Positions 1 to 16,367 of a DNA stretch of 16,367 bases are shown piece after piece. This stretch comes from a virus. The notes below the pieces were generated by a model. It searched no databases, was not told where the DNA came from, and worked only from the letters and a program-made list of their open reading frames with translations. Both the position numbers and the translations under genes were made by a program. Within the stretch, counting starts at the first letter, position 1. Each line of letters starts with the position of its first letter. The stretch spans positions 1 to 16,367 of the IMG/VR virus record IMGVR_UViG_3300043353_000054, one strand, 5' to 3'.

Positions 1-127
1 AGCCGCAGCAGCGGGCCTGGTCGTGTACCCGCCCACCCAGGACGTACGCCTGGGGTACGAGAACGACAACCAGCGCGGCGACGAGCTCGCAACCCACATG
101 ACCGGGCCCGCCGCCCATCAGTGGGAC
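1..127 (+). repeat. Terminal overlap, copy 1 (identical to 16241-16367)
   Basis: Base-by-base comparison of both window ends shows 127/127 identity. Confidence 0.97.
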
Positions 128-322
128 CAGATCGTCGGCAAGCCGGTGCTCGTCTACTCGTTCGTCGGCCAGGACATCCGGTTGCGGTCGGACGAGACGC
201 TGACCCGGGTCATCTTCTACGTCGAGGGCAACGAGTTCGACCTGGCGCCCCTGTCCCGGGTCACCGCCCTGGAAGCCCGGGTCGCCGCCCTCGAGGCCGC
301 CAACCCCCACCGGGAGGACTGA
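2..322 (+). CDS. Minor tail protein, 3' part of the junction-spanning 112-aa gene (starts at 16224)
   Basis: Same frame as the listed ORF 23-322, but open from base 2 and continuous with ATG 16224 through the 127-bp overlap. C-terminal heptad-like RVTALEARVAALEAAN. Sits in the tail module. Confidence 0.7.
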   Translation, partial: AAAAGLVVYPPTQDVRLGYENDNQRGDELATHMTGPAAHQWDQIVGKPVLVYSFVGQDIRLRSDETLTRVIFYVEGNEFDLAPLSRVTALEARVAALEAANPHRED

Positions 323-325
323 GCC

Positions 326-829
326 ATGCCCGTGGGTGCACCCGACGCGAACGGGATCTACCACTACACCGAGGACGACCTCGCGTCCCCGTTCTCGAGC
401 ACGCTGAACAAGCTCGCCGACACCGTCTCAGCGGCGTTCGCCGCGAACACCTACGTCCCGACCCTGACCACGGACACCGGTCCTAACCCGACCAACTACA
501 CCGCCACGGGCCGCTACCGTCGCTCCGGCAAGATCCTGCTCGTCCAGTTCTCGATCGCCATGAACGCCGGGATGACCCCCGGCACGGGCGTCTACCGGGT
601 CAGCGTGCCCGTCCCCGTGGTCACCGCGGGGGGCGTCGCCCGCCTGTTCGACAGCTCGACCGGCAACGCACACCTGGACTCGCGCATCGCCCTGGCCTCC
701 GCGACGACTCTCGGGTTCCAGTACACCGTGACCCACGGCGGCACACTCGGCAACGTAGCCGCTGGGCTGCCGTGGGTGTGGGCGTCGGGCGACCTGCTCG
801 ACGGGTTCGCCGTCTGCGAGGCGGCATGA
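326..829 (+). CDS. Minor tail protein (possible receptor-binding/tail tip protein), 167 aa
   Basis: ATG 326 preceded by GGGAGGA (312-318). Balanced, non-shadow composition. Last structural ORF before the endolysin. Stop overlaps the next ATG (ATGA at 826-829). Confidence 0.75.
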   Translation: MPVGAPDANGIYHYTEDDLASPFSSTLNKLADTVSAAFAANTYVPTLTTDTGPNPTNYTATGRYRRSGKILLVQFSIAMNAGMTPGTGVYRVSVPVPVVTAGGVARLFDSSTGNAHLDSRIALASATTLGFQYTVTHGGTLGNVAAGLPWVWASGDLLDGFAVCEAA

Positions 830-1707
830 CGATCGCCGTCACCTCGAGCAACGGCCAGGCGCCCGCGGACGCGCTGTCCGTGCTGCCCGGGGCCAACGGC
901 GACGGCACGCCTCACACCGCACCGCACGTCACCGCCCAGTCCTACGCGCGCATCCGCGACGCGATGCGCGCCGCGAACATGGGCGACCTGATCCCGACCG
1001 ATGGGTGGTCCTGCTACCGGGACCGTGACGCCCAGCAGCACATGCGTGACCTGGGCCTGACCACGATCCCGGTCGGGCAGTCGATCCACGGCGAGTGGTC
1101 GATCGGGTCGGCCGTCGACTTCTCCGGCCTGGGCGGGTTCGGCGCACCCCGGCACGACTGGCTACGTCACAACGGCGGCCAGTACGGCTGGTACCAGCCC
1201 GGGTGGGCGCAGATCTACGGCTCGCTACCCGAGCCCTGGCATTGGGAGTACGACCAGCGAGACGACAGGCATCTCGGAGAGGACGACGACATGACACCCG
1301 ACGAGGTCAAGGGCGCGTGCGAGGAAGCGGTCAAGGGCGTCCTACGCGCACCCGAGTTCCAGGGATACATGCGCGACCTGCCATGGGCGCACCCGATCAA
1401 CGGACCCGACGCAGCAGATCTGTGGCTCAGGGACGCCCGCCTCGCCCCCGAGCTGCACGCCGAGATCGCCGGCGTCTCGACCCAGGTCGACGAGCTCGCC
1501 GTCGCCGGCGGCGTACGGGCCTGGCCCTCGACCCTGGCCCTGATCCTGGCCGTCGCGATCATCGCCGGCCTGGTCGCCGCCCTGATCAACCAGGTCGTCG
1601 ACGACGGCGTCGTCGCCGGCGTCGCCACCCTCATCGGCGGGCTGGTCGGATGGGCAGCAACGACCCTGGGGCAGAGGGTCGCACGCCACCGCACCGCGAC
1701 GACCTAG
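826..1707 (+). CDS. Endolysin, M15/VanY-type (LAS) peptidase domain with C-terminal two-transmembrane module, 293 aa
   Basis: ATG 826 in an ATGA overlap. SIHGEWSIGSAVDF and EPWHWEY resemble the SxHxxGxAxD and ExWH zinc-ligand motifs of VanY/M15 peptidases. The C-terminus has WPSTLALILAVAIIAGLVAALI and VVAGVATLIGGLVGWAATTLG, followed by the basic tail QRVARHR. Confidence 0.8.
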   Translation: MTIAVTSSNGQAPADALSVLPGANGDGTPHTAPHVTAQSYARIRDAMRAANMGDLIPTDGWSCYRDRDAQQHMRDLGLTTIPVGQSIHGEWSIGSAVDFSGLGGFGAPRHDWLRHNGGQYGWYQPGWAQIYGSLPEPWHWEYDQRDDRHLGEDDDMTPDEVKGACEEAVKGVLRAPEFQGYMRDLPWAHPINGPDAADLWLRDARLAPELHAEIAGVSTQVDELAVAGGVRAWPSTLALILAVAIIAGLVAALINQVVDDGVVAGVATLIGGLVGWAATTLGQRVARHRTATT

Positions 1708-1820
1708 CCCGGCCCCGGACCTACAGGGCCGGGCACGTCGGTCCCGAGCGGCATCAGCAGACCGAACGCGAGCACGACCAGCGCGATCACGACCAGCGCG
1801 ACCCACTCCCACCACCGCAT
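1704..1820 (-). CDS. Small single-pass membrane peptide, 38 aa (function unknown; holin-like or exclusion peptide possible)
   Basis: Internal ATG of listed ORF 1704-1904 gives MRWWEWVALVVIALVVLAFGLLMPLG..., last gene of the leftward operon. The C-terminal GPVGPGPG is encoded by the hairpin at 1707-1734. Confidence 0.45.
   Translation of the reverse strand: MRWWEWVALVVIALVVLAFGLLMPLGTDVPGPVGPGPG
1707..1734. terminator. Hairpin at convergent gene junction (candidate bidirectional terminator)
   Basis: GCCCGGCCC (1707-1715) pairs perfectly with GGGCCGGGC (1726-1734) around a 10-nt loop, starting at the last base of the endolysin stop codon. No U-tract. Confidence 0.5.
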
Positions 1821-1831
1821 CGGGTCCCGTT

Positions 1832-2272
1832 TCACCGCGGCGTCACGAACACCCGCAGGCCCGCACGCGGCGCCTGACCCTTGCGGTACCGGGTCGGCCC
1901 CCACGGGCCCACCTGCAGCAGCCCGTCAGCCGCCAGTTGCCGCACGCCGGCACGGTCCGTGCCGAGCAGCCGAGCAGCCTCGTCGAGCGTCAGCAGCACC
2001 GGCACCGCGTACGCCAGGCGTACGTCTGGCGCAGGGGGGCCAACGTCAGACGCCGCCTGGCGTACGACAGACGTACTAGCACCCGCCGCCGACACCCGCG
2101 CCGTCGACGGGATCGACCAGTTTCCCCGCTCGTCCTTCACCGCCCCCTCGATCCGCCCCTCAGCCAGGTACCGCTGCATCGTGCGGTCCGCGATCTCGTG
2201 CAGCGCGCCGTACTGCGACCGCGTCAGCATCACCTCGTGCTCGTACGCCTGGCGTACGTCTGGCGTGCTCAC
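1832..2272 (-). CDS. Tandem-HTH DNA-binding protein (two excisionase/MerR-type HTH modules), 146 aa; candidate recombination directionality factor or regulator
   Basis: GTG 2272 sits in a GTGA overlap with the upstream stop (alternative ATG 2230). Two related modules are PDVRQAYEHEVMLTRSQYGALHEIADRTMQRYLAEGRIEG and PDVRLAYAVPVLLTLDEAARLLGTDRAGVRQLAADGLLQVG. The upstream part of listed ORF 1832-2557 is R/P/A-rich shadow. Confidence 0.7.
   Translation of the reverse strand: MSTPDVRQAYEHEVMLTRSQYGALHEIADRTMQRYLAEGRIEGAVKDERGNWSIPSTARVSAAGASTSVVRQAASDVGPPAPDVRLAYAVPVLLTLDEAARLLGTDRAGVRQLAADGLLQVGPWGPTRYRKGQAPRAGLRVFVTPR
2008..2031 (-). repeat. 24-bp motif copy A (17-bp perfect palindrome CGTACGCCAGGCGTACG plus TCTGGCG)
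   Basis: Read directly. Identical to 2242-2265 except the central base. Translated on the minus strand as PDVRLAY. Confidence 0.9.
2242..2265 (-). repeat. 24-bp motif copy B (17-bp perfect palindrome CGTACGCCTGGCGTACG plus TCTGGCG)
   Basis: Read directly. Lies 234 bp from copy A. Translated on the minus strand as PDVRQAY. Confidence 0.9.
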
Positions 2273-2478
2273 AGTGTCGTCGCCGCGCCCAGAGACTCCA
2301 GGGCAAGCCGGTAGATCCCCGCCACGCGCGGCCGCAGCACGACGTCGCGGTCGACGTCGTCGCCGAGCTCGAGCAGGAGCTCGACCGCCCGCACGGGCAG
2401 GCCGTACTCGTCGGCGATCTGCCGCAGCGTCGCCGCGTCGTCCTCGCTCACGTACACCGTGTTCCCCTCGCGCCTCAT
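2269..2478 (-). CDS. Hypothetical small acidic protein, 69 aa (possible ribbon-helix-helix fold)
   Basis: ATG 2478 in an ATGA overlap with the upstream stop; its own stop is in a GTGA overlap with the next gene. TVYVSEDDAATLRQIADEYGLPVRAVELLLELG has a strand-helix-helix pattern. The fold call is inference only. Confidence 0.65.
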   Translation of the reverse strand: MRREGNTVYVSEDDAATLRQIADEYGLPVRAVELLLELGDDVDRDVVLRPRVAGIYRLALESLGAATTL

Positions 2479-2687
2479 GAGGTGGCCTCCCACGCGTCAG
2501 CGAACACCTCGAGTGCCTCGAGCGTCGTGGTGACGGATCGGTACAGGTGGCTGGCACCCATGTCGAGCGCCGTCACTTCGGCGATGCGGTCGAGGACCAA
2601 CGCGCACCCCGCGATGTCAGTCATCGTGAGCCCTGGGAAGCTGGCCCGTACCCTCGCGGCCACCAGCTCCGGCGCTGTCGTGCTCAT
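2475..2687 (-). CDS. Hypothetical small acidic protein, 70 aa
   Basis: Internal ATG 2687 of listed ORF 2475-2753, preceded on the minus strand by GAGGAA. Protein-like composition, whereas the overlapping plus-strand ORF 2482-2736 is Ser-rich shadow. Confidence 0.65.
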   Translation of the reverse strand: MSTTAPELVAARVRASFPGLTMTDIAGCALVLDRIAEVTALDMGASHLYRSVTTTLEALEVFADAWEATS

Positions 2688-2700
2688 GCGGTCGTTCCTC

Positions 2701-2732
2701 TCGATTCGGGATTCCGGAATCCGGAATCCGGT
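2701..2732. promoter_or_regulatory. Heptamer repeat / palindrome block in the int-orfA spacer (candidate operator/promoter)
   Basis: Four tandem heptamers: ATTCGGG ATTCCGG AATCCGG AATCCGG (2704-2731). Contains the perfect 14-bp palindrome GGATTCCGGAATCC (2709-2722). Lies in the only uncoupled gap (2688-2778) of the leftward arm, which is locally GC-poor. Confidence 0.45.
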
Positions 2733-2778
2733 CTGATGTCCGAAGACTCCCAATCGCCTGATTGGTAGTTGATGTCCG

Positions 2779-3660
2779 TCATGTCTGAACCCCGGCTAGG
2801 CGCCGGTGACGCTTGTCGACGGCCGCGCGCATCAGGTCCGCGTTCGGCTTCACGTACCGCTGGGTCGTGGCCAGCGAGCGGTGCCCGAGCAGCTGCTGGG
2901 CGACGATGATGTTCGGCTCGTCGTCGACGATGCCCGTGGCGAAGCTGTGGCGTAGCGCGTGCATCGTGTGGTGGCCGGGCAGCAGCCGGGCGACGAGCGT
3001 GCCGACCCACCGCGGCGACAGGTGCCCGTCACACGATCCCGGGAACAGGTAGCCGGCTGGCGCCTGGCGGATCGCCGTGGCGATCTCGGCCGGCAGCGGC
3101 AGGACCCGGTTCCGTGAGCCCTTCCCGTGCACTACGAGCGACGAGTCGAACAGGTTGTCGATCAGGTCGCCCGTGCTCACCTGCGCGACCTCCGCGCGGC
3201 GCATGCCCAGCTCGAAGGCCAGCTGCAGCATCAGCCGCTCACGCGGCGCGGCCGCGGCGACCGCCGCCTCGTACACGTCGTCGGGCGCCGGCCGCGGGAT
3301 CCCGTCAGAGGCTCGGATCGTGGGCAGGTCGCGCGCGACGTCGCTGGCGACCAGGCCGACGCCGTGCGCCCACCGGTAGAACCCGACCAGCGTCGAGCGG
3401 ACCATGCGCTGACGCTCGACCGACCACCGCGGCCGCAGCCGGCCGAGGTCGGCGTCCCACACCTCCGCGCCGAGCCACTCGACGAGGTCCGTCGTCGTGA
3501 GCTCCCACGGGCTCTCGGTCCGCTCGCGTGAGAGCTGCGCGAGGATGTCGCGCCGCGCCCTGATCGTCGAGACCGCGCGCCTGGCCGCGCGCTGCGCGGT
3601 CGACCAGCCATCGATGGGTACCTGCCACTCTGCGCGCACGTGGCGCTTCTGCATGCTCAT
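2779..3660 (-). CDS. int: Tyrosine integrase, 293 aa
   Basis: Catalytic signature is readable: GMRRAEV (Arg), HGKGSRNR (Lys), HALRHSFAT (His-x-x-Arg), LGHRSLATTQRY (His...Tyr). ATG 3660 is in an ATGA overlap with the upstream ORF. Adjacent to a tRNA-like attP core. Confidence 0.95.
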   Translation of the reverse strand: MSMQKRHVRAEWQVPIDGWSTAQRAARRAVSTIRARRDILAQLSRERTESPWELTTTDLVEWLGAEVWDADLGRLRPRWSVERQRMVRSTLVGFYRWAHGVGLVASDVARDLPTIRASDGIPRPAPDDVYEAAVAAAAPRERLMLQLAFELGMRRAEVAQVSTGDLIDNLFDSSLVVHGKGSRNRVLPLPAEIATAIRQAPAGYLFPGSCDGHLSPRWVGTLVARLLPGHHTMHALRHSFATGIVDDEPNIIVAQQLLGHRSLATTQRYVKPNADLMRAAVDKRHRRLAGVQT

Positions 3661-3866
3661 GCCCCACCCATCGGCCCGCCGGCCTCACGCTGCAGGAGGT
3701 CAGCCGCCGCGTACTGCAGTCGGATCGAGAGGTCGATTGCCGTGTCGGGGCTGAGCCAGATCCACTCGTCGCCGACCTGCAACTGCAGGTGCGGTACGCC
3801 GAACGAGTCGGCGACGGTGTAGAGGTGCAATTCGACCGGTGGCCTGCCCCCGCCGTGCGCCCTCAT
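3657..3866 (-). CDS. Hypothetical protein, 69 aa, between repressor and integrase
   Basis: ATG 3866 in an ATGA overlap with the repressor stop; its own stop is in an ATGA overlap with the int start. Protein-like composition (ELHLYTVADSFGVPHLQLQVGDEWIWLSPDTAIDL). Confidence 0.6.
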   Translation of the reverse strand: MRAHGGGRPPVELHLYTVADSFGVPHLQLQVGDEWIWLSPDTAIDLSIRLQYAAADLLQREAGGPMGGA

Positions 3867-4258
3867 GCGCCGAGCACCCAGCCATCACGCGAGGGTGCAG
3901 AACCGGAAGACCTGCAGGTCAGACGCCGCCCGGCGTTTCGCGCGAATATCCGCCGGACGACCGTCCAGAAGGTTGGGGGTTCGAGTCCCTTCGGGCGCAC
4001 AGCAGGGCCCTCGTCGTCACGACGGGGGCCCTCGTCGTTCAACCAGTCCAGCGACACGCCCGTGGCGAGCGCCCAAGCGATGAGGACGGGGCGCCGCGGT
4101 TCGCGCTCGCCACCCTCGTACCCCGCGATCGACCGTCGCGACAGCCCTGTCGCCTCGCCGAGCTCGGTCTGCGAGAGGCCGCTGACCTCACGCGCCTTCC
4201 GAAGCCTGTCAGTGAGCGTCCAGGCTGGGACTGTCCCCTGCACCGTTACCTGCGTCAT
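3863..4258 (-). CDS. XRE-family HTH repressor, virion form 131 aa, with C-terminal extension read through the attP core
   Basis: ATG 4258 (the listed ORF start 4285 is a TTG). HTH: LSQTELGEATGLSRRSIAGYEGG...LIAWALATGVSLDWL. Residues ..AVRPKGLEPPTF.. are the antisense reading of the tRNA-like segment at 3975-3999. Divergent from the HTH gene at 4353. Confidence 0.85.
   Translation of the reverse strand: MTQVTVQGTVPAWTLTDRLRKAREVSGLSQTELGEATGLSRRSIAGYEGGEREPRRPVLIAWALATGVSLDWLNDEGPRRDDEGPAVRPKGLEPPTFWTVVRRIFARNAGRRLTCRSSGSAPSRDGWVLGA
3965..3999 (+). other. Candidate attP common core: 3' fragment of a tRNA (variable loop, T arm, acceptor 3' strand, discriminator)
   Basis: AGGTT-GGGGG-TTCGAGT-CCCTT-CGGGCGC-A: a 5-bp T stem (3 GC + 2 GU), a canonical 7-nt T loop and a 7-nt acceptor strand. 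No matching acceptor 5' strand, D arm or anticodon arm upstream. The left boundary is approximate. Confidence 0.7.
4005..4031 (+). terminator. Strong hairpin immediately 3' of the tRNA-like core (would serve as tRNA terminator after integration)
   Basis: GGGCCCTCGTCG / CGACGGGGGCCC forms a 12-bp stem (11 WC + 1 GU) with a 3-nt loop, followed by TCGTCGTTC. Lies inside the repressor ORF on the opposite strand. Confidence 0.5.
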
Positions 4259-4352
4259 GTGCGCAACGTTACACGGTCTGCGCAACCTTGCTCAGGGCAA
4301 CACGCGCCGATGTGCTTGGCGAACGTTGCTCAACTGTGGCAAGGTTCGCCGG
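4259..4352. promoter_or_regulatory. Divergent repressor/cro-like control region with four operator-like repeats
   Basis: GCGCAACGTTACA (4261-4273), GCGCAACCTTGCTC (4280-4293), GGCGAACGTTGCTC (4318-4331) and, inverted, GGCAAGGTTCGCC (4338-4350). TAACGT (minus strand, 4271-4266) lies 7 nt before ATG 4258, consistent with a leaderless repressor mRNA. Confidence 0.6.
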
Positions 4353-4544
4353 ATGAACGATGATGCACTGATGGCGACCCGTGAGGTCGCGGAGCGGCTA
4401 GGCGTCTCGATCGCCACCGTGAACCGCATGGCTAAGGACGGCCGGCTCACGCCGGCCCTGCGCACGCCCGGAATCCGTGGCGCCCACCTCTACGACCGGA
4501 ACAAGGTCGAAGCCCTCGAGCAAGAGATGAGGACGGCGCCGTAG
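4353..4544 (+). CDS. Cro-like / excisionase-family HTH protein, 63 aa
   Basis: Internal ATG 4353 of listed ORF 3789-4544. ATREVAERLGVSIATVNRMAKDGRL is a typical excisionase/MerR-type HTH. Divergent from the repressor. Confidence 0.8.
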   Translation: MNDDALMATREVAERLGVSIATVNRMAKDGRLTPALRTPGIRGAHLYDRNKVEALEQEMRTAP

Positions 4545-4573: not shown

Positions 4574-5437
4574 ATGAACGCTAGTCCAGAGTCGGGCCAG
4601 CCGGACAGAACCCGCAAGGGTGACCCCGGCGTGTCCCGCGAACGCACCGCGCTCAACCCCGACGAGCTGCGTGCCCTGTTCGGCTCGAAGCCCAAGGCCC
4701 GCATGCCGAAGGGACGTGAGCGGCGTCGTCGACCAGCCAAGACCCCGCACGCGGGCTGGAAGACCAACCAGCTGATCCTCGCCCTGTCGCGTGCGGGCTG
4801 GGGTGAGCTCGCCGGCCACGACGCGCGCGGTCTGCGCGCGGTCCTCGATGCCGTCGCGGCCAAGATCGTCGACCACCGCATGGGGCGCGCGTTCTCGACG
4901 ATCCCCGAGATCGCGGCCGCGGCCGGCTACGGCCACACCTGGACGCAGATCAAGCTCACCGAGCTCGACGAGATCGGGTTCATCGACTGGCGACGCGGTG
5001 GGCTCAAGCCCGGCCGCGGCCACGGTCGGGAGCGGTCGTTCTTCATCGTGAACCGGCACGCGCTCGTCGAGGCGATCGCCGCCGCGAAGGCACTGCGCGG
5101 CCCGGTCATCACCGAGCACGTCGCCGAGTGCATCCGACGCCTGCGAGAGCAGCGCCTCAAGTGGCTCCGAGCCCGCTACGCGAAGCGAAAGCCCAGGTCA
5201 GAACAGGACCCACCCACTGGTAGCCACTCTCTTCGTACCTCAGGGGAGTCGGTACGCGAACCCTCACCTGAGGGGGCCAGCGACTACTTCAAACAGCTGC
5301 ACGCCAGCGGACCAGCACCCGACGAGTGCGAGCACGGATACGCCAGCGCGCTCTCCTGCGCGTGGTGCAAGAAACAGCCACACGGAGCCGGCTCCGCCGG
5401 CGCCCAGACGATGAGAGGCGGTGCGGCCCGTGGTTAA
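4574..5437 (+). CDS. Winged-helix DNA-binding protein, candidate replication initiator, 287 aa
   Basis: ATG 4574. STIPEIAAAAGYGHTWTQIKLTELDEIGFIDWRRGG reads as helix-turn-helix plus wing. It is the only large early gene, and no polymerase, helicase or primase is present. C-terminal CEH...CAWC cluster. The function is inferred. Confidence 0.7.
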   Translation: MNASPESGQPDRTRKGDPGVSRERTALNPDELRALFGSKPKARMPKGRERRRRPAKTPHAGWKTNQLILALSRAGWGELAGHDARGLRAVLDAVAAKIVDHRMGRAFSTIPEIAAAAGYGHTWTQIKLTELDEIGFIDWRRGGLKPGRGHGRERSFFIVNRHALVEAIAAAKALRGPVITEHVAECIRRLREQRLKWLRARYAKRKPRSEQDPPTGSHSLRTSGESVREPSPEGASDYFKQLHASGPAPDECEHGYASALSCAWCKKQPHGAGSAGAQTMRGGAARG

Positions 5438-5681: not shown

Positions 5682-5920
5682 ACCCCGCCGCGACTCTGAC
5701 GACCGGGACGTACTGGATCGATCTGCCCTGCCCGCGGTGCGGTGTGCTCGCCACAGTGTCCGTGCATCTCGGGGCCACCCTCACCACGCCGGACGAGGGT
5801 GGCCCGTCCCTGAAGCTGGTGGCCAAGTCGAAGGCCGTCGACCACTGGTGCGGTCAGCGTCCGATGCTGACCACGCCCGACCTTTCCCTGTTCGTCGACC
5901 CCAACGACGGGAACGTGTAA
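5678..5920 (+). CDS. Hypothetical protein with CPRC...HWC motif, 80 aa
   Basis: GTG 5678 in a GTGA overlap, in the frame of listed ORF 5639-5920. Confidence 0.6.
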   Translation: MNPAATLTTGTYWIDLPCPRCGVLATVSVHLGATLTTPDEGGPSLKLVAKSKAVDHWCGQRPMLTTPDLSLFVDPNDGNV

Positions 5921-5921
5921 T

Positions 5922-5957
5922 CCCACAGTGTTACGCCTGCGTGACACATACTGTGGG
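5922..5957. promoter_or_regulatory. Composite stem-loop filling the 38-bp spacer before the HNH/packaging block
   Basis: CCCACAGT (5922-5929) pairs with ACTGTGGG (5950-5957). An inner GTTACG/CGTGAC pairing is also present. The segment is locally GC-poor. Confidence 0.45.
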
Positions 5958-5958
5958 C

Positions 5959-6105
5959 ATGCGGATCGACCAGGCCGAGTGCGTCCACGGGATGCCCGGC
6001 GGTAACCCGGGCACGTGCGCCCTGTGCCGGGTGGCCCAGCGTCGTGCCACCCGGCACGCGGCGTGGGTCGACGTGCGCCGGCTGGCAGCGGGTGACGACG
6101 CGTGA
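5959..6105 (+). CDS. Hypothetical small Cys/His-containing protein, 48 aa
   Basis: Internal ATG 5959 of listed ORF 5737-6105. GC3-rich codons. Its stop is in a GTGA overlap with the HNH start. Motif CVH...CALC. Confidence 0.45.
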   Translation: MRIDQAECVHGMPGGNPGTCALCRVAQRRATRHAAWVDVRRLAAGDDA

Positions 6106-6834: not shown

Positions 6835-8228
6835 CGCCGCTGGGAGCGGCATACGCCACCGCGCGGGACCCGAACGCACGCACCATGGGCCCGCTCGTCG
6901 CGCACCTGGCCGCCCAGCTCGGCACCAACCTGATGCCCTGGCAGCGCTACGTCGCTGACGTCGCCCTCGAGCTGCACCCCGACGACCCGGGCCGGTGGCG
7001 CTACCCCACGGTCATCGTGACCGTCCCGCGCCAGTCCGGGAAGACGACGCTGCTACGGGCTGTGGCGTTGGACCGGTGCCTGACCCGGGCTCGGACCCGG
7101 GTGTTCATGACCGCGCAGACCGGCAAGGACGCGCACACCCGCTGGAAGGACACCGTCGAGGTCATCGAGCGGTCCGCGTTCGGGCCGCACGTGAAGGTCA
7201 ACCGGGCCGCCGGCGCACCGACGTTCACCCTGCCGAACGCGTCCCAGGTCCGCGCGTTCGCGCCCACGCCGAAGTCGATCCACGGCGAGACACCGCACCT
7301 GGTCATGGTCGACGAGGGCTGGGCCTTCGACGCCGCCCAGGGCGAGGACCTGATGGGCGCGATCCGGCCCGCGCAGATCACCCTGCCCGACCGTCAGCTC
7401 TGGATCGTCTCGACCCGCGGGTCCATGGACTCCACGTTCCTGGACGCGTGGATCGACGCCGGCCGCCTCGCGACCACCGACCCCGGGGCCGCGGTCGCCT
7501 ACTTCGAGTGGTCCGCACCTGAGGGCGCGGACGCCTACGACCCCGACACGTGGGCGTTCCACCCGGCCTTGGGGCACACGATCACCCGTGACGACCTCGC
7601 CGCCGAGGCCGCCGAGGCGTCCCGCGGCGTGTGGGAGCGGGCGTTCATGAACCGGCGCACCATGACCCTGGAATCGATCATCGACCTGGACCAGTGGGAC
7701 CAGCTCGAGGACCTCGACATGGTCCCGCCGGCCCGGGTCCCGATCCTCGGCTACGACGCGGACCGTGACGGCGCGACCGTGTACGCGGCCTGGTGGGACC
7801 AGCAGCGCGTCACGGTCCGCACCGTCGCGACCGGGCCGGGACCCGCGTGGCTCGTCGAGACGGTGCCGGCCCTGGTCGACCGGCTGCGCCCCGACCACGT
7901 CATGGCCGACGACGGTGGGCACGCCCGGTCCGTGACCGAGGATCTACGCCGCGCCGGCCTGCTGATCGACACGGTCGCCGGCAGGGACTTCGGGACGATG
8001 TGCTCGAGCCTGCTTCGCCTGGCCCGCTCCGGGCGCATCACCCACGACGGGTCGCCCGAGCTGCGGGCGGCGTGGGCCGGCGCCGCGCTGAAGTTCGTCG
8101 GGGACCAGGAGGCGTTCGACCGGCGCCGCGCCCGCACCCCGCAGCACGCCCTGCTCGCCGTGGCCGCCGCGGTCCGTGGCCTGACGAACGGCCCAGAGTC
8201 CCTGGGCGCACCCGATGTGAGGTTCTGA
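6831..8228 (+). CDS. Terminase large subunit, 465 aa
   Basis: GTG 6831 in a GTGA overlap. Walker A VPRQSGKTT, Walker B LVMVDEGW. Appropriate size and position. The first 111 codons of listed ORF 6498-8228 overlap the small-terminase gene and are R/G/P shadow. Confidence 0.92.
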   Translation: MTPLGAAYATARDPNARTMGPLVAHLAAQLGTNLMPWQRYVADVALELHPDDPGRWRYPTVIVTVPRQSGKTTLLRAVALDRCLTRARTRVFMTAQTGKDAHTRWKDTVEVIERSAFGPHVKVNRAAGAPTFTLPNASQVRAFAPTPKSIHGETPHLVMVDEGWAFDAAQGEDLMGAIRPAQITLPDRQLWIVSTRGSMDSTFLDAWIDAGRLATTDPGAAVAYFEWSAPEGADAYDPDTWAFHPALGHTITRDDLAAEAAEASRGVWERAFMNRRTMTLESIIDLDQWDQLEDLDMVPPARVPILGYDADRDGATVYAAWWDQQRVTVRTVATGPGPAWLVETVPALVDRLRPDHVMADDGGHARSVTEDLRRAGLLIDTVAGRDFGTMCSSLLRLARSGRITHDGSPELRAAWAGAALKFVGDQEAFDRRRARTPQHALLAVAAAVRGLTNGPESLGAPDVRF

Positions 8229-11246: not shown

Positions 11247-11570
11247 ATGACCAACCCGTGGGTCGACAAGGCGTACGCCCGTGGCGCGTGGCCGGACTCC
11301 GGGAAGATCTCCGACGTCCGCCTGGACCAGCTGCTCGACATCGCCTACGAGGCGTGCGCGTCCTACGCGGTCCCGGTCCCCGACGACGCGGTCCCTGCCC
11401 GCTACCCCGAGGCTGTGACCCTGGTCGCGCGTGCCACCTGGACCGCGGCCCGCGCGAGCTCGGACGGGCTGGGCCTCAACGACGGCACCGACCTGGCGCT
11501 GCCGCAACCGGTCCTGTCCTCTCAGGCCCTCCAGCTGCTACGCCCGCCGGCACCGGTGGTCCTGGGATGA
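11247..11570 (+). CDS. Head-to-tail adaptor/connector protein (putative), 107 aa
   Basis: ATG 11247 preceded by the strong GAGGGGG. First gene after the capsid, with the size typical of gp6-like adaptors. Confidence 0.7.
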   Translation: MTNPWVDKAYARGAWPDSGKISDVRLDQLLDIAYEACASYAVPVPDDAVPARYPEAVTLVARATWTAARASSDGLGLNDGTDLALPQPVLSSQALQLLRPPAPVVLG

Positions 11571-11938
11571 GCGCCCGCCACGACCTGATCGACCTGCTCA
11601 CCCCGGCCCTGCCGGTCGACTGGGACCTGTACCCCTACCCGGCCACGGTCGACGCGATCGAGTCCGGGCACACCCTGGTCCTGGTCGACACCTACGCCGA
11701 GCAGACCGAACCGATCCGCGGGCTACGCGCCCACACGATCACCCTCGTCCTGGCCGTCCCGTTCACCTCCAGCCCGGAAGCAGATGACGCCCTGGACGTC
11801 GCGTGGGACCTCCTGCGCCCGGTGCTCGAGGACATGGCCGGGTCGCGCCTGATCCACTGGAACGACGCGACCCGGTCCACGTTCGACAGCACGTACCCGG
11901 CGTTCACGATCCCCGTCACGATGAAAACGAAGGACTGA
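11567..11938 (+). CDS. Head-tail joining / neck protein (putative), 123 aa
   Basis: ATG 11567 in an ATGA overlap. This is the only protein-like part of listed ORF 10082-11938. Confidence 0.7.
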   Translation: MSARHDLIDLLTPALPVDWDLYPYPATVDAIESGHTLVLVDTYAEQTEPIRGLRAHTITLVLAVPFTSSPEADDALDVAWDLLRPVLEDMAGSRLIHWNDATRSTFDSTYPAFTIPVTMKTKD

Positions 11939-11943
11939 TCACC

Positions 11944-12429
11944 ATGGTTGCTGTTCCGCTGACTACCCCGTACACGATGTCGACCGCGACCCTGACCCTG
12001 GGCGTGGACGACTACACCGCCGCCGTCTCGCAGGCGATCTTCACCCCGTCCGTCAGCCTGTCCACGTGGCGGGGAATCGGCGGCAACCAGCTCACGTTCC
12101 CCTCGCCCGCCACGTGGACGCTGGACGTGGCGATCGCCCAGGACCTGGCCCCTGCCGGTCTGCTGCGGTACCTGCTGGACCACGCCGGCGAAGAGGTCGA
12201 CGCGACCCTGACGCCGCTGGCCGCCGAGGACCCGATCACCGCGAAGGTCATCTTGTCCCCCGGCGCGATCGGTGGGACCGCCGATGGGTCCGCCGCCGTG
12301 GCGACGATCTCCCTGGGCGTCCAGGGTGTGCCGTCGTTCGTGGTCGCCGCCGCCGCCACCAGTACGCCTGACGTACGCCAGGCGGACCAGGACGAGGTTC
12401 TCGAGTACGACGACCTGACCACCGCGTGA
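11944..12429 (+). CDS. Major tail protein (putative), 161 aa
   Basis: ATG 11944 preceded by GAAGGA. Position upstream of the tape measure, appropriate size, and a Thr/Ala/Val-rich beta-like composition. Confidence 0.65.
   Translation: MVAVPLTTPYTMSTATLTLGVDDYTAAVSQAIFTPSVSLSTWRGIGGNQLTFPSPATWTLDVAIAQDLAPAGLLRYLLDHAGEEVDATLTPLAAEDPITAKVILSPGAIGGTADGSAAVATISLGVQGVPSFVVAAAATSTPDVRQADQDEVLEYDDLTTA
12361..12402 (+). repeat. Near copy (D) of the palindromic motif plus flank, inverted partner of 2231-2269
   Basis: agt acg cct gac gta cgc cag gcg gac cag gac gag gtt matches the minus-strand sequence 2269->2231 at 33 of 39 positions. It encodes STPDVRQADQDEV versus STPDVRQAYEHEV. Confidence 0.8.
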
Positions 12430-12433
12430 CCCC

Positions 12434-12925
12434 GTGGGCACCCTGCTGACCACCGACGACCGGGCCCTGCGCGCGTGCGTGCTCGGGTTCAAGGAGCTGG
12501 ACGCGACGTACCGGCGTGAGCTGAACAAGGCCACACGCACCGTCCTGGGACCCGAGTTCGTGCGGGCCGTGGCCGCGCACGGGCGCACCAACCTGGACAC
12601 CCGGGTCCTGGTCGCCGGCGCGAAGGTCGCCGGAGGTAACCCGCCGGTCCTGGTCGCCGGGTCCTCCAGGCGTCGGATGCGCGGTGGGATGGTCCCGGAC
12701 CGGGACGCGGCCGCCGTCGAGTTCGGGACGCTGGACCGCAACCATCGCACCACCTACCAGCGGCAGGGCGCCAAGGTGACGCGCCGCACCCGGCGCCAGC
12801 TGCCGGCCCGGGTCAAGTCCGGGCGTGTGGTCATGCCGGCCGTGGCCGACGTCGTGCCCAAGGTCACGTCCATGTGGGTGCAGCAGTTCGTGCGCCTGGT
12901 CTACGAAGCGGCCGGGGAGAGCTGA
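12434..12925 (+). CDS. HK97 gp10-like tail/neck component (putative), 163 aa, in the slot usually held by tail assembly chaperones
   Basis: GTG 12434. AAVEFGT...MPAV resembles the (V/I)EFGT motif I recall for the gp10-like family. Basic central region. Confidence 0.55.
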   Translation: MGTLLTTDDRALRACVLGFKELDATYRRELNKATRTVLGPEFVRAVAAHGRTNLDTRVLVAGAKVAGGNPPVLVAGSSRRRMRGGMVPDRDAAAVEFGTLDRNHRTTYQRQGAKVTRRTRRQLPARVKSGRVVMPAVADVVPKVTSMWVQQFVRLVYEAAGES

Positions 12926-12929
12926 CCTC

Positions 12930-14633
12930 GTGGCTATCCGTATCCCGATCATCGCGGACGTCGTCGACGCGATCCGTGGCGCCAAGAAGCTGGGCGAGTC
13001 CTTCGACGATGTGGCCGACGCCCTCGATGACGTCGACCACTCCTCCGGGGACGCGACCACCGGGGCCAAGCAGCTGGACCGGGCGTACGGCGACGTTGCC
13101 GACACCCTGGGCGACGTCGACCGGCAAGCCAAGGACGCTGCCGACGGGGTAGCCGACGTCGGGGACAAGGCCGACGCGACCAAGCGTGACGCGGACGACA
13201 TGCAGAAGTCGTTCCGTGACGCGTTCGACTCGGTCCGCAAGGAGGCCACGACCGCCGGGGACAGCATCGGGGACCACGTCAAGAAGGGCACCGAGGAAGC
13301 CGACGCCGGCTTGAAGGACCTCAAGGAAGAAGCCGGCCAGACCGCCCGCGAGTCCGCCGCGTCGTTCTCCGACGTCACCTCCGCACTCGACGCGGTCCAG
13401 GAGGTCGCAGCGAACGCGTTCTCCGGGTTCGGCCCGGCCGGTGCCGCGGCCGGCATCGCCGCGGCTGTCGGGCTCGGCCTGGTCTTCAGCTCGTTGCAGA
13501 AGAACGACGAGGCTGCCCTGGCCCTCACGCAACGCATCATCGACCTGTCCCAGGAGCTGTCCGAGGTCGGTGGGGACCTGTCCAAGATCGACTTCAAGGA
13601 CAAGATCCGCGAGTGGTCCAACGAGATCAAGGACAACAAGTCATGGTGGGAGGTCTGGCAGAAGGACACCACCACCAACCTCGATGACGTCAAGGACAAG
13701 GCGGACAAGTTCGGGATCTCGTTCACGGACCTGCTGCGCGGCATGTCCGGGTCGGACTCCGACGCGGCCGCACGCTCGCTCGGTCAGATCAACGACCTGA
13801 TCACCGAGCAGAACAAGATCATCGCGGCTGCGGAGGACCCCACCAAAGCCCACACGGACGCCACGTACGGCGCGGCCGCGGCCGCCACGATGCAGGCCGA
13901 CAAGCTCGAGGACCTGCGCCGCGAGCTCCAGAAGAACTCGGGCGTCACCGACGAGGCCGTGGCCCGTCAGAAGCTGCTCGACGAGGCCCTGGGCGAGTCC
14001 GCCGCCGCCAGCGAGCACGCACGCCAGGTAGCCGAGTCCTACGCCGACGCCCTGGAGTCCACCGCCGACCCCGTGTCGGTGTACGAGGGTTTGCTGGCGT
14101 CCAAGAACGACGCCGAACGCAAGGCCGCTGAGGCGACCGCCGCGGCGACGGAGGACTCGTCGGACTCTTGGCAGGACTACGCCAAGGACGTCACGGTCAC
14201 GACGGACGACCTGATCACCGAGTGGAACCGCCAGGCCGAGCAGAACAAGGCGTTCGCGGACAACCTCGCCAAGATCGGTGCCGCCGGTGGGCAGGCACTG
14301 GCCGACGAGCTGCGCGCCAAGGGCCCCGAGGTCGCATACGCCACCGCGGCCGCGATCGCGCAGTCCGACCCGACCGTCCAGAAGGCGGCGATCGACGCGC
14401 ACGCCGCCGCCACCGGGTCCGCGGTGGGTACGAGCATCGCCGGCGGGATCAGCGGGCAGGCCGCGGCCGTGCAGAGCGCCGTGAACGGGGTGATCGCGGG
14501 GATCAAGGTCGGCAACGTGACCGTCCCGCTGAAGATCGACTTTGCGCAGGCCGTCAGGGACTACGACAACTACGTGCGCAACCTGCCCCCGGTCAGGGTC
14601 TTGGCGCACAGCTCCATGCCCCAGGCGATCTGA
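12930..14633 (+). CDS. Tape measure protein, 567 aa
   Basis: GTG 12930 preceded by GGGGAGAG. Largest tail ORF, with Ala/Asp/Lys/Glu-rich helical repeats and the hydrophobic Gly-rich segment FSGFGPAGAAAGIAAAVGLGLVFSSL. Confidence 0.88.
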   Translation: MAIRIPIIADVVDAIRGAKKLGESFDDVADALDDVDHSSGDATTGAKQLDRAYGDVADTLGDVDRQAKDAADGVADVGDKADATKRDADDMQKSFRDAFDSVRKEATTAGDSIGDHVKKGTEEADAGLKDLKEEAGQTARESAASFSDVTSALDAVQEVAANAFSGFGPAGAAAGIAAAVGLGLVFSSLQKNDEAALALTQRIIDLSQELSEVGGDLSKIDFKDKIREWSNEIKDNKSWWEVWQKDTTTNLDDVKDKADKFGISFTDLLRGMSGSDSDAAARSLGQINDLITEQNKIIAAAEDPTKAHTDATYGAAAAATMQADKLEDLRRELQKNSGVTDEAVARQKLLDEALGESAAASEHARQVAESYADALESTADPVSVYEGLLASKNDAERKAAEATAAATEDSSDSWQDYAKDVTVTTDDLITEWNRQAEQNKAFADNLAKIGAAGGQALADELRAKGPEVAYATAAAIAQSDPTVQKAAIDAHAAATGSAVGTSIAGGISGQAAAVQSAVNGVIAGIKVGNVTVPLKIDFAQAVRDYDNYVRNLPPVRVLAHSSMPQAI

Positions 14634-14992: not shown

Positions 14993-16224
14993 CGCTGTCC
15001 GCGCTGTCCGCCACCGTCAAGGTCGGGGCCCTGACGCTGCCGGTGCGCCAGGTCGCCCTGAGCGTGGACCAGACCCGGGCCCCGTTCGGCATGGCGGACC
15101 TGACGATCCCGTACGACCCGGCCACCATCGACGCCCTGGACCCGCGCACCACCCCCGCACCTCGGCTGTCCGTGACGCTGGACCGCCGGTTCGCTGACAT
15201 CTTGACCCTCGCGCGGATCAGCACGCAGTTCGCCGGCGGCACGTTGGCCGCGGTCAGCACGAAGTACATGGGTGCGACGCTGCGGGCCCTGTCCGCGGCG
15301 TACGGGACCGTCTGGAACGCGTTCGGGTTCCGCCCCCCGCAGGGCTTCACCGCCGACCTGGTCGTGCGCTCACGCGATATCGACTTCGCCGCGAACACCG
15401 TCCACGTCAGGGCCGGCACCGACGAGGCCCTCCTGCTGGACTACGGGCTGCTCGCCACGGCGCCCGTGTCCCCGGCTGCGCTGACGGTCGCGGACGCGGT
15501 ACGCCTCGCCCTGGCGTACGCCGCGCCCGGTGCGGTCCTGGTCACCACGGACGGCGCCCAGGCGATCAGCGCCGAGTCCGCCGTCTGGAAACCGGGCGTG
15601 TCCGCCTGGAACTACGCGTCCACGCTGTGCACCTCGGCCGGGCTGCGGCTGTGGTGCGACGAGCACCGGGTCTGGCGCCTGGTCGCACCCGACGCGATCA
15701 CCGCCCCCGGGCAGGTCACCCTGTCCGCGTCCGACTCCGTCACCCAGGCCGGCGACCTGATCACCCGCGAGACCGACGCCTGGTTCGACGGAGTCGTGGT
15801 CACCTACGCCTGGACGGACGCCGCGAACGTCCACCACGAACAGTCCGACATCGCCGGCCCCGCGTCCGCCTCACGCATCCTGCTCGTCCAAGAGGACCGC
15901 CCGTTCCCGCGCGCCGGCGCGGCCGCGGCACGGCTGCGCAAGGTCAAAGGACAGGGCCGCGTCCTGACGATCGACGCCGTGGCGGACCTGGCCGCCTACC
16001 CCGCAATGGCCGCCTCGTTGTCCGTCCCGAACACCCCCACCCAGACCGGGTATGTGGCCGCCGTCACCTGGACCGTGCCAGCCGATGAGATGACGGTCGC
16101 GACCCGCGGCCTGGTCGACACACCACCGACCTCGTGGGCCTACGGGAACGTCGCACAGTCCTGGACCGACGTCCCCGCAGGCATGCACTGGAACACCTTC
16201 AACTGGACAGGAGTGGCCCCCTAA
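14989..16224 (+). CDS. Minor tail protein (tail tip/hub position), 411 aa
   Basis: ATG 14989 in an ATGA overlap. Protein-like composition. Second gene after the tape measure. Confidence 0.8.
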   Translation: MTLSALSATVKVGALTLPVRQVALSVDQTRAPFGMADLTIPYDPATIDALDPRTTPAPRLSVTLDRRFADILTLARISTQFAGGTLAAVSTKYMGATLRALSAAYGTVWNAFGFRPPQGFTADLVVRSRDIDFAANTVHVRAGTDEALLLDYGLLATAPVSPAALTVADAVRLALAYAAPGAVLVTTDGAQAISAESAVWKPGVSAWNYASTLCTSAGLRLWCDEHRVWRLVAPDAITAPGQVTLSASDSVTQAGDLITRETDAWFDGVVVTYAWTDAANVHHEQSDIAGPASASRILLVQEDRPFPRAGAAAARLRKVKGQGRVLTIDAVADLAAYPAMAASLSVPNTPTQTGYVAAVTWTVPADEMTVATRGLVDTPPTSWAYGNVAQSWTDVPAGMHWNTFNWTGVAP

Positions 16225-16367
16225 TGGCGATCGGAGACAAAGCCGCAGCAGCGGGCCTGGTCGTGTACCCGCCCACCCAGGACGTACGCCTGGGGTACGA
16301 GAACGACAACCAGCGCGGCGACGAGCTCGCAACCCACATGACCGGGCCCGCCGCCCATCAGTGGGAC
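16224..16367 (+). CDS. 5' part of the junction-spanning minor tail gene (continues at base 2 after circular closure)
   Basis: ATG 16224 overlaps the upstream TAA (TAATG). GGAG at 16210-16213. MAIGDKAAAAGLVVYPPTQDVRLGYEN... runs off the window end in frame with 2-322. Confidence 0.7.
   Translation, partial: MAIGDKAAAAGLVVYPPTQDVRLGYENDNQRGDELATHMTGPAAHQWD
16241..16367 (+). repeat. Terminal overlap, copy 2 (identical to 1-127)
   Basis: Same comparison. The overlap stops exactly at the window end, typical of a circular-contig overlap. Confidence 0.97.

Follow-up and report, generated by a model that had tools for sequence, protein, structure and literature searches.

A palindromic motif with an 11-bp period inside a tandem winged-helix gene and in two tail genes of a small actinophage

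The locus and the sites of the motif

The sequence analysed here, referred to as the window, is the complete 16,367-nt stretch of IMG/VR virus record IMGVR_UViG_3300043353_000054, and our subject is a short repeated motif that it carries in the gene for a tandem winged-helix protein and in two tail genes. The window represents a circle of 16,240 bp with a 127-nt terminal overlap and a G+C content of 70.6%, and it belongs to a small temperate siphophage of actinobacteria (an actinophage). The winged-helix gene occupies positions 1832-2272 of the minus strand, in the integrase operon and convergent with the lysis genes, and encodes 146 amino acids (aa). Its product matches the Pfam family HTH_17 (E = 4.5e-7), and we call it the tandem-HTH (helix-turn-helix) protein. 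An AlphaFold2 model shows two confident winged-helix domains; Foldseek matches each of them to lambda Xis (TM score 0.78-0.80, root-mean-square deviation 1.5-1.6), and also to BldC, RacA and Pukovnik Xis. The tail genes are on the plus strand: the major tail protein gene at 11944-12429 (161 aa; phrog_4574) holds one copy of the motif, in its acidic C-terminal extension, and a tail-fibre-like gene that spans the junction of the circle (16224-16367, running on to 322; 112 aa, beginning MAIGDK) holds another.

The core of the motif is a perfect 15-nt palindrome, GTACGCCWGGCGTAC, which is set in 26-nt blocks made of palindromic units of 11 bp. The composition of a block is GTAC + GCCWGGC, GTAC + GCCWGGC, GTAC; that is, GTAC-N7-GTAC-N7-GTAC. 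Such blocks were found at five places, against an expectation of about 0 to 0.7. Allowing up to 3 mismatches, GTACGCCWGGCGTAC has 11 matches (0.69 expected), while the spaced pair GTAC-N7-GTAC occurs 5 times (0.07 expected), each time within one of the five sites. Shuffling codon order within genes gave a mean of 0.00 copies at up to one mismatch, and shuffling synonymous codons a mean of 0.63 with a maximum of 3, compared with the 5 observed, so that the motif withstands the codon-shuffled null by which a preliminary description of this DNA had proposed to judge it. We scored sites with a 26-mer matrix trained solely on the HTH-gene sites of relatives, for which the 99th percentile of the null is 15.1 bits; a score of at least 20 anywhere has P = 0.001, and unrelated sequence scores below 0.

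Three of the five sites lie within the tandem-HTH gene, all on the minus strand. Site 1 (2243-2268; GCACGCCAGAC GTACGCCAGGC GTAC; 38.4 bits) corresponds to codons 2-10, directly after a GTGA stop/start overlap with the upstream open reading frame (ORF), and 7 of 8 related genes conserve it as DNA. Site 2 (2051-2076; GTACGTCTGTC GTACGCCAGGC GGCG; 32.5 bits) is in the inter-domain linker, 192 bp from site 1 and 42 bp from site 3, and its rare codons GCT, AGT and TCT are conserved among relatives. Site 3 (2009-2034; CTGCGCCAGAC GTACGCCTGGC GTAC; 38.6 bits) closes the linker and immediately precedes the second winged-helix domain, and all 8 related genes retain its GTA codon. The preliminary description centred on sites 3 and 1, as its copies A and B; the third block, the 26-nt block structure and the 11-bp period had gone unnoted. 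The motif is dyad-symmetric, with tandem units, and not asymmetric.

The JGI gene call starts the tandem-HTH gene at the ATG at 2230 (M15), downstream of site 1. Homologues, however, start with MS(T/A)PDVRQAY, from a conserved ATG or GTG 14-21 codons upstream that overlaps the stop of the preceding ORF (GTGA/ATGA), and the intervening indels are all multiples of three. Site 1 thus amounts either to codons 2-10 of the gene or to a short leader. In the AlphaFold2 model, the residues encoded by the motif fall in an N-terminal tail (aa 1-11) and in the linker (aa 64-84), both predicted to be disordered, with confidence (pLDDT) below 50.

The copy in the major tail gene, copy D (12362-12387, plus strand; GTACGCCTGAC GTACGCCAGGC GGAC), is a full-strength 26-nt block of 36.4 bits, inside the 32.5-38.6 bits spanned by genuine sites, and differs from site 1 at 3 of 26 nt. 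The stop codon follows it by 40-65 nt, and the next gene, which starts at 12434, by 47-72 nt. The codons given for it in the preliminary description, cct gac gta cgc cag gcg gac at 12367-12387, were confirmed, as was its inverted match to site 1, which we found as 38 nt at 87% (33/38; 2232-2269 against 12361-12398). Copy E, in the tail-fibre-like gene (33-58, and again at 16273-16298 through the terminal overlap; plus strand), was likewise confirmed at its reported places, 38-58 and 16278-16298. It consists of one good 15-mer, GTACGCCTGGGGTAC, after a poor unit, makes up codons 17-25 of the gene, and has an intermediate score of 20.5 bits. Inverted matches of 32-33 nt at 78-82% connect it with sites 3 and 1.

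Two further candidates of the preliminary description score as background and are not counted among the sites. Its copy F (15493-15519, plus strand; GTACGCC N7 GGCGTAC; best score -4.9) keeps both heptamer half-sites, 17 nt apart instead of 11, and may be a chance or decayed half-site pair. The supposed degenerate copy in the intergenic stem-loop at 5922-5957 (plus strand, 3' of the gene ending at 5920; -21.1 kcal/mol, z = -2.3) has a best score of -4.6, and its likeness to the motif requires an indel. The identical 3' flank of site 1 and copy D (ACGAGGT) was considered as a sign of copying and set aside: a large part of it was already present in the ancestral tail gene, whose homologues conserve D-x-D/E-V-L-E-Y, and the shared D/E-V is ancestral in both genes. 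In the window as a whole, CCWGG is over-represented (123 against 46 expected from dinucleotide shuffles) and GTAC moderately so (65 against 38). Neither is avoided, and we therefore rejected a role for GTAC or CCWGG as a restriction or methylation target.

Related phages and constraint on the motif DNA

No close cultured phage relative of the window was found. Its distant kin are very small actinophages, Microbacterium cluster EE (family Orlajensenviridae) and Arthrobacter cluster FE. Scans with the HTH family returned zero related loci in GTDB genomes, zero in IMG/VR and only one 1-kb contig in JGI metagenomes, and a scan of IMG/VR with the major tail protein gave no matches. One locus, L017, was left out as another type of phage with a D5-like primase. 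In seven related loci (L001-L007), three blocks are found at the same places in the HTH gene; sites 2 and 3 are always 42 bp apart, and sites 1 and 2 are separated by 183, 192 or 198 bp. The conserved core of the system is three 26-bp blocks in the gene of the proposed binder, one at its 5' end and two in the linker stretch exactly 42 bp apart.

The motif goes with the tandem-HTH gene; it follows neither integrase nor XRE protein nor small HTH_17 protein. The integrases of L001-L007 range from 44% to 97% identity with that of the window, and most of the XRE and small HTH_17 proteins of these loci are unrelated to those of the window. Conversely, L014 is 79-86% identical to the window in nucleotides across the structural genes and has a 90%-identical integrase, but its tandem-HTH protein is a different one (37% identity), and it has no GTAC motif and nothing at the positions of copies D and E. 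Since the motif is present with integrases that are 44% identical and absent with one that is 90% identical, it belongs with the tandem-HTH gene rather than with the integrase or repressor. In its place, the linker of the L014 gene contains five copies of another 11-bp unit, GTCAGACCCCC (11459-11567, minus strand), which is translated as SDPR in one frame and as QTPV in another. Remnants of the GTAC motif (GTGGTACGTCAGAC) at the edge of this array suggest that the motif has turned over in place.

Arrays of other sequences accompany the gene in more distant phages. In Quaker (cluster EE; L010, MH371111), gene 21 encodes a 32%-identical tandem-HTH homologue, and a palindrome GGACATGTCC, in tandem units of 11/12 bp, is clustered at the 5' end of this gene and in its inter-domain linker (15275-15300, 15505-15570). 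The late-operon gene boundaries of Quaker also carry it, as GACATGTCC-TA-GACATGTCC, at 748, 1068, 2540-2560, 6085-6105, 7423-7445 and 13307-13330, with 9 matches against 0.61 expected. Efeko (cluster EE; L011) has the same pattern (913-933, 2403, 7324, 15117; 5 matches against 0.64 expected), and the tandem-HTH homologue of these phages is gp21/gp22. L018 has units of GACACGACGTA at 11-bp spacing just upstream of the tandem-HTH gene (11513-11570), and the 450-bp gap downstream of the gene contains eight GACACGCCG half-sites arranged as palindromes (12270-12405, 12693). We regard this conserved placement of lineage-specific arrays with an 11-bp period inside a tandem Xis/BldC-like gene, across small actinophages, as the more interesting result.

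The gene is downstream of the integrase in all integrase-bearing relatives, and it also occurs where no integrase is present. Two integrase-less JGI contigs (sample 3300043313; 14,410 nt and 12,022 nt) are syntenic with the window and have a reverse-strand homologue of 136 aa or 131 aa after the lysis genes. This synteny makes the integrase cassette look like an insertion into a lytic-type backbone. In both contigs no gene is called in the 720-830 bp that come after the tandem-HTH gene.

The coding of the motif bears on what is conserved. Because the period of 11 bp is not a multiple of 3, a single DNA unit is translated in two frames, TPD(V) and RQA(Y). All copies of the motif encode valine by GTA, a codon that accounts for 20 of the 436 valine codons of the genome (4.6%). 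In a codon alignment of 8 genes with 49-78% amino-acid identity, 21 of the 31 motif valines use GTA, compared with 0 of 86 elsewhere, and codons ending in A or T make up 27% of the motif and 7% of the remainder. For pairs below 65% amino-acid identity, synonymous-codon identity is 91.8% in the motif and 61.5% elsewhere. These codon patterns indicate that selection acts on the DNA of the motif. The same bases therefore carry a DNA signal and a protein sequence, and it is the array that dictates the conserved PDVRQAY, which is easily mistaken for a functional peptide.

The preliminary description had allowed for such a peptide, (P)DVR(Q/L)AY, shared by the proteins and recognised by a common partner. 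It is conserved in all the HTH homologues (11 metagenomic ones, at 44-78% identity, retain MS(T/A)PDVRQAY, VVRQAA and PDVRLAY), and it falls in the segments predicted to be disordered and accessible. We nevertheless consider this explanation extremely unlikely: besides the conserved GTA and other A/T-ending codons and the translation of one unit in two frames, relatives have copies in another codon phase (at the 3' end of the HNH gene in L004, reading HARRTPGA, and in the integrase gene of L007, reading HVRRTP), the dispersed copies of cluster EE are intergenic, and the peptide of copy D is missing from every homologous tail protein. These out-of-phase copies also limit the claim that the motif always occurs in the same codon phase, which is true within the window and not universal. 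A shared phase is in any case close to automatic for a palindromic core whose length of 15 nt is a multiple of 3; and since the core is palindromic, VRQAY and VRLAY are what the two strands of a single DNA sequence encode.

The two tail-gene copies have different settings. Copy D is in an indel-prone, hypervariable 3' linker, the acidic C-terminal extension, whose length and sequence differ in every homologue read; in the alignment, L016 has a gap of ~27 nt and L014 a different insertion. Judged by its sequence, D is a lineage-specific fourth block of full strength. Copy E, in contrast, falls within an N-terminal domain, MAIGDKAAAAGLVVYPxTQDxRLGYENDNQRGDELA, that is common to many actinobacterial phage tail proteins. 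The x of TQDxRLGYENDN is valine in 2 of the 19 sequences compared (the window protein and P0078) and K, R, A or H in most others, and the window encodes this valine by the rare GTA. In other words, the phase and most of the sequence of E pre-existed in a widespread peptide, and only the variable residue and its GTA codon moved it towards the motif. We accordingly read E as a weaker fifth site, which appears to have arisen where a conserved tail-fibre peptide already resembled the motif.

The proposed binder and alternative explanations

The motif, short and with an 11-base period, is almost certainly a protein-binding site. We think it somewhat probable, on balance, that the motif is a DNA-level recognition element whose likeliest binder is the phage's own tandem winged-helix protein, of the Xis/BldC type. 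The sites, their departure from chance, the selection on their DNA, the protein fold and the parallel arrays of other lineages are shown; the binder is inferred from the linkage of motif and gene, the fold, and the failure of the motif to track other regulators, and what binding does is a proposal. One winged-helix domain would sit on each 11-bp unit, with all domains on the same side of the DNA, in the manner of Xis, Apl and BldC on their direct repeats. Occupancy of the three intragenic blocks could then autoregulate the leftward operon, through a roadblock or looping. Copy D, and more weakly copy E, would be additional occupied sites, placing tail-gene transcription or DNA organisation under the same protein.

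The proposal of one domain per unit follows from the fold and from the literature on direct repeats. Direct repeats one helical turn apart are the targets of Apl and, in general, of the recombination directionality factors (RDFs) (PMC7498355); BldC forms cooperative multimers on direct repeats (PMC5859096); and Gp36 of phage D29 has a direct-repeat site and represses the genes that lie downstream of it (PMC12266134). Xis, Apl, BldC and Gp36 have the same domain fold (HTH_17, MerR-like winged helix) and the same repeat spacing of one helical turn, which is 11 bp in the window and its relatives, L014 and L018, and 11/12 bp in Quaker. Apl and Gp36, moreover, also regulate phage transcription. Unlike these systems, the present one has two domains in one polypeptide, its units are also dyad-symmetric, and its arrays lie inside coding sequence, including the gene of the candidate binder.

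Several observations weigh against this reading. The constant 42-bp spacing can be explained by a linker of 14 codons; the distances of 183, 192 and 198 bp between sites 1 and 2 are not helically phased; and a motif inside a gene is trivially inherited with that gene. A scan with the sigma-70 consensus found no sigma-70-type promoters, and no intrinsic terminators were found, near the sites. Late-gene copies are restricted to the window and the cluster EE phages, with none in L014 or L018. Copies D and E are conserved in no relative read (L001, L002, L014, L016, 18 major tail and 18 tail-fibre homologues), and among the 18 homologous major tail proteins there is not one with STPDVRQA, the peptide encoded by copy D. 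Copy D may be a neutral templated insertion in its indel-prone linker, and the score of E may be owed mostly to the conserved peptide.

Taken together, the last points lead to an alternative that we treat as possible if doubtful: only the intragenic array is functional, D is a neutral templated insertion of ~27 nt, and E is the coincidence of a conserved peptide and one valine codon. The gap in L016 and the different insertion in L014 fit this explanation, as does the scatter of the relatives' satellites over unrelated locations, one in HNH at its 3' end and one in the integrase gene. Against it, D keeps full matrix strength, E uses GTA where most homologues do not even have valine, and cluster EE shows that systematic late-operon copies are possible. 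Furthermore, a protein-binding site has consequences regardless of its origin.

Binding by the tandem-HTH protein could also serve replication. It seems rather unlikely to us that the blocks are the iterons of an origin inside the gene of its own initiator, with the tandem-HTH protein as origin binder and D and E as secondary sites that may stall forks, similar to oriR of SPP1; the resemblance nevertheless extends to several features. The lambda origin lies inside gene O and has four inverted-repeat iterons (PMC5043065), and SPP1 gp38 binds direct repeats both in gene 38, at oriL, and at oriR in the late region (PMC6316719, PMC3485210). As in these phages, the repeats here are within the gene of the presumed binder, in this case in the part that codes for the inter-domain linker, and SPP1 has a second set of sites in its late region. 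The 14.4-kb and 12-kb integrase-less relatives and cluster EE are without a recognisable replication gene, yet all retain the tandem-HTH protein. Iterons differ between lambdoid phages, and the related phages here likewise have different, lineage-specific repeats. However, no A+T-rich unwinding element adjoins the blocks (the lowest-GC 40-nt stretches are at 11916, 8378, 2743 and elsewhere), the fold is Xis/BldC-like and neither Rep- nor O-like, helicase loader and helicase genes are lacking, and the gene is located in the integrase operon, convergent with the lysis genes. Another candidate early protein without a family match also exists, at 4574-5437 (287 aa).

An attachment-site architecture, in which the blocks are arm-type or RDF sites of the phage attachment site (attP) and the tandem-HTH protein is an excisionase, would agree with the Xis fold, with the position of the gene downstream of the integrase, and with the span of the three blocks, 260 bp, which is the size of an attP. 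We judge it improbable. An excisionase acts with its cognate integrase at attP sites, whereas this motif is independent of integrase type; the 293-aa integrase is short, matches only the Pfam catalytic domain and probably has no arm-binding domain; integrase-less and lytic relatives keep the homologous gene, and cluster EE keeps analogous arrays. In L001, which abuts host-like genes, the gene is intact.

Inversion or homologous exchange between the copies, the second reading of the preliminary description, is very improbable. It drew on the inverted pairs formed by site 1 with copy D and by site 3 with copy E, whose matches of 38 nt at 87% and 32-33 nt at 78-82% are given above and which would produce in-frame fusions. 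The longest exact match between site 1 and D is only 15 nt, and an exchange would join the major tail protein to a regulator, a fusion that makes no biological sense, and would reverse 10 kb of essential genes. Site-specific inversion systems have a dedicated invertase and crossover sites that flank a switchable segment; gene and family searches found no invertase gene in the window, and the segments between the pairs are 2 kb and 10 kb of essential genes. The presence of the motif is independent of the integrase, the pairs are missing from all relatives, and the shared phase follows automatically from the 15-nt palindrome. The nesting of the pairs does hold on the circle, though it follows trivially from their positions and adds nothing. 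As for the supposed co-orientation with transcription, in the tail genes it rests on two sites, D and E, and the orientation of a palindromic site is definable only from its imperfections. The emphasis of the preliminary description on phase, orientation and nested inverted pairs was therefore misplaced.

Of its three readings, the first, dispersed regulator sites, is best supported, as sites of the tandem-HTH protein and not in the form of stoperators. The stoperators of cluster A phages are recognised by a repressor with two DNA-binding domains (PMC9283540) and are, like the present copies, regulator sites dispersed in actinophage late genes. They are, however, asymmetric 13-bp sequences that number dozens, are mostly intergenic and equal the operator of the immunity repressor, whereas the window motif is symmetric, has five sites of which three are in one gene, has its two satellites in coding sequence, and is not found in the switch region. 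Small conserved motifs at gene boundaries are known from other actinophages: a 2020 survey of Microbacterium phages describes repeated intergenic motifs of unknown function in clusters EC, EF, EG and EI (PMC7302621). Text matches for repeats or motifs in that survey include none for cluster EE (PMC7302621). The cluster EE motif GGACATGTCC differs from these in its association with the tandem-HTH gene, at the 5' end and in the linker, and so comes with a candidate binder.

As we read it, the system combines dispersed phage regulator sites, which are of a known kind, with sites inside the gene of the proposed binder. Sites of the tandem-HTH protein would offer a candidate binder and a testable function for the repeated motifs of the smallest known actinophages, including the culturable cluster EE, which are uncharacterised in regulation and replication. 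If the late-gene copies are functional, they illustrate how a phage regulon can grow in a genome that is nearly devoid of intergenic space, by gaining sites in coding segments that are structurally tolerant. A broader and speculative extension, which we put forward as unlikely though worth stating, is that Orlajensenviridae-like small actinophages share an undescribed module: a lineage-specific array in the segments coding for the tail and linker of its own binder, acting as a lambda-O-like origin plus initiator or as a master early/late switch, with the late copies (D, E and the cluster EE boundaries) as barrier or bridging sites. Such a module would serve genomes that have no other replication or regulatory genes.

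Other features of the genome

The immunity switch region served as a negative control. It lies at 4258-4353, between the divergent genes for the XRE repressor and a 63-aa HTH_17 protein (Cro/Xis-like), and has repeats of its own, probably the immunity operators: two copies each of TGCGCAAC[GC]TT and AAC[CG]TTGCTCA, and GGCGAACGTTGC/GCAAGGTTCGCC as an inverted pair. No GTAC motif occurs in the region.

We mapped the genes from third-position G+C, ORF structure and family searches. The plus strand carries, in order, the early genes, HNH, terminase, portal, a protease-capsid fusion, major tail, tape measure, minor tail, the junction-spanning tail-fibre-like gene and the lysis genes. The minus strand carries the XRE repressor (3863-4258), a tyrosine integrase (2779-3660), two small ORFs and the tandem-HTH gene. 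Rfam has no match in the window, and no tRNA able to place attP was found. One of the lowest-GC stretches, 2735-2783 (47%), is directly 3' of the integrase stop, in a 96%-identical block common to L001, and is a candidate for the attP core.

L001 itself is a 19.6-kb ENA contig in which host-like genes (Fur/Zur-like, ZnuA, glutamate dehydrogenase and cNMP-binding; 1-3700) join the phage right beyond HNH. The junction is at the place where cluster EE genomes end, and not beside the integrase; L001 may represent either a chimeric assembly or a prophage whose attachment point is unusual.

Downstream of the major tail gene, the 3' end of the gene at 12434-12925 is also covered, at 12825-12925, by a long ORF in a different frame that continues into the tape-measure gene. 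A frameshift of a tail-assembly chaperone would be expected at this position.

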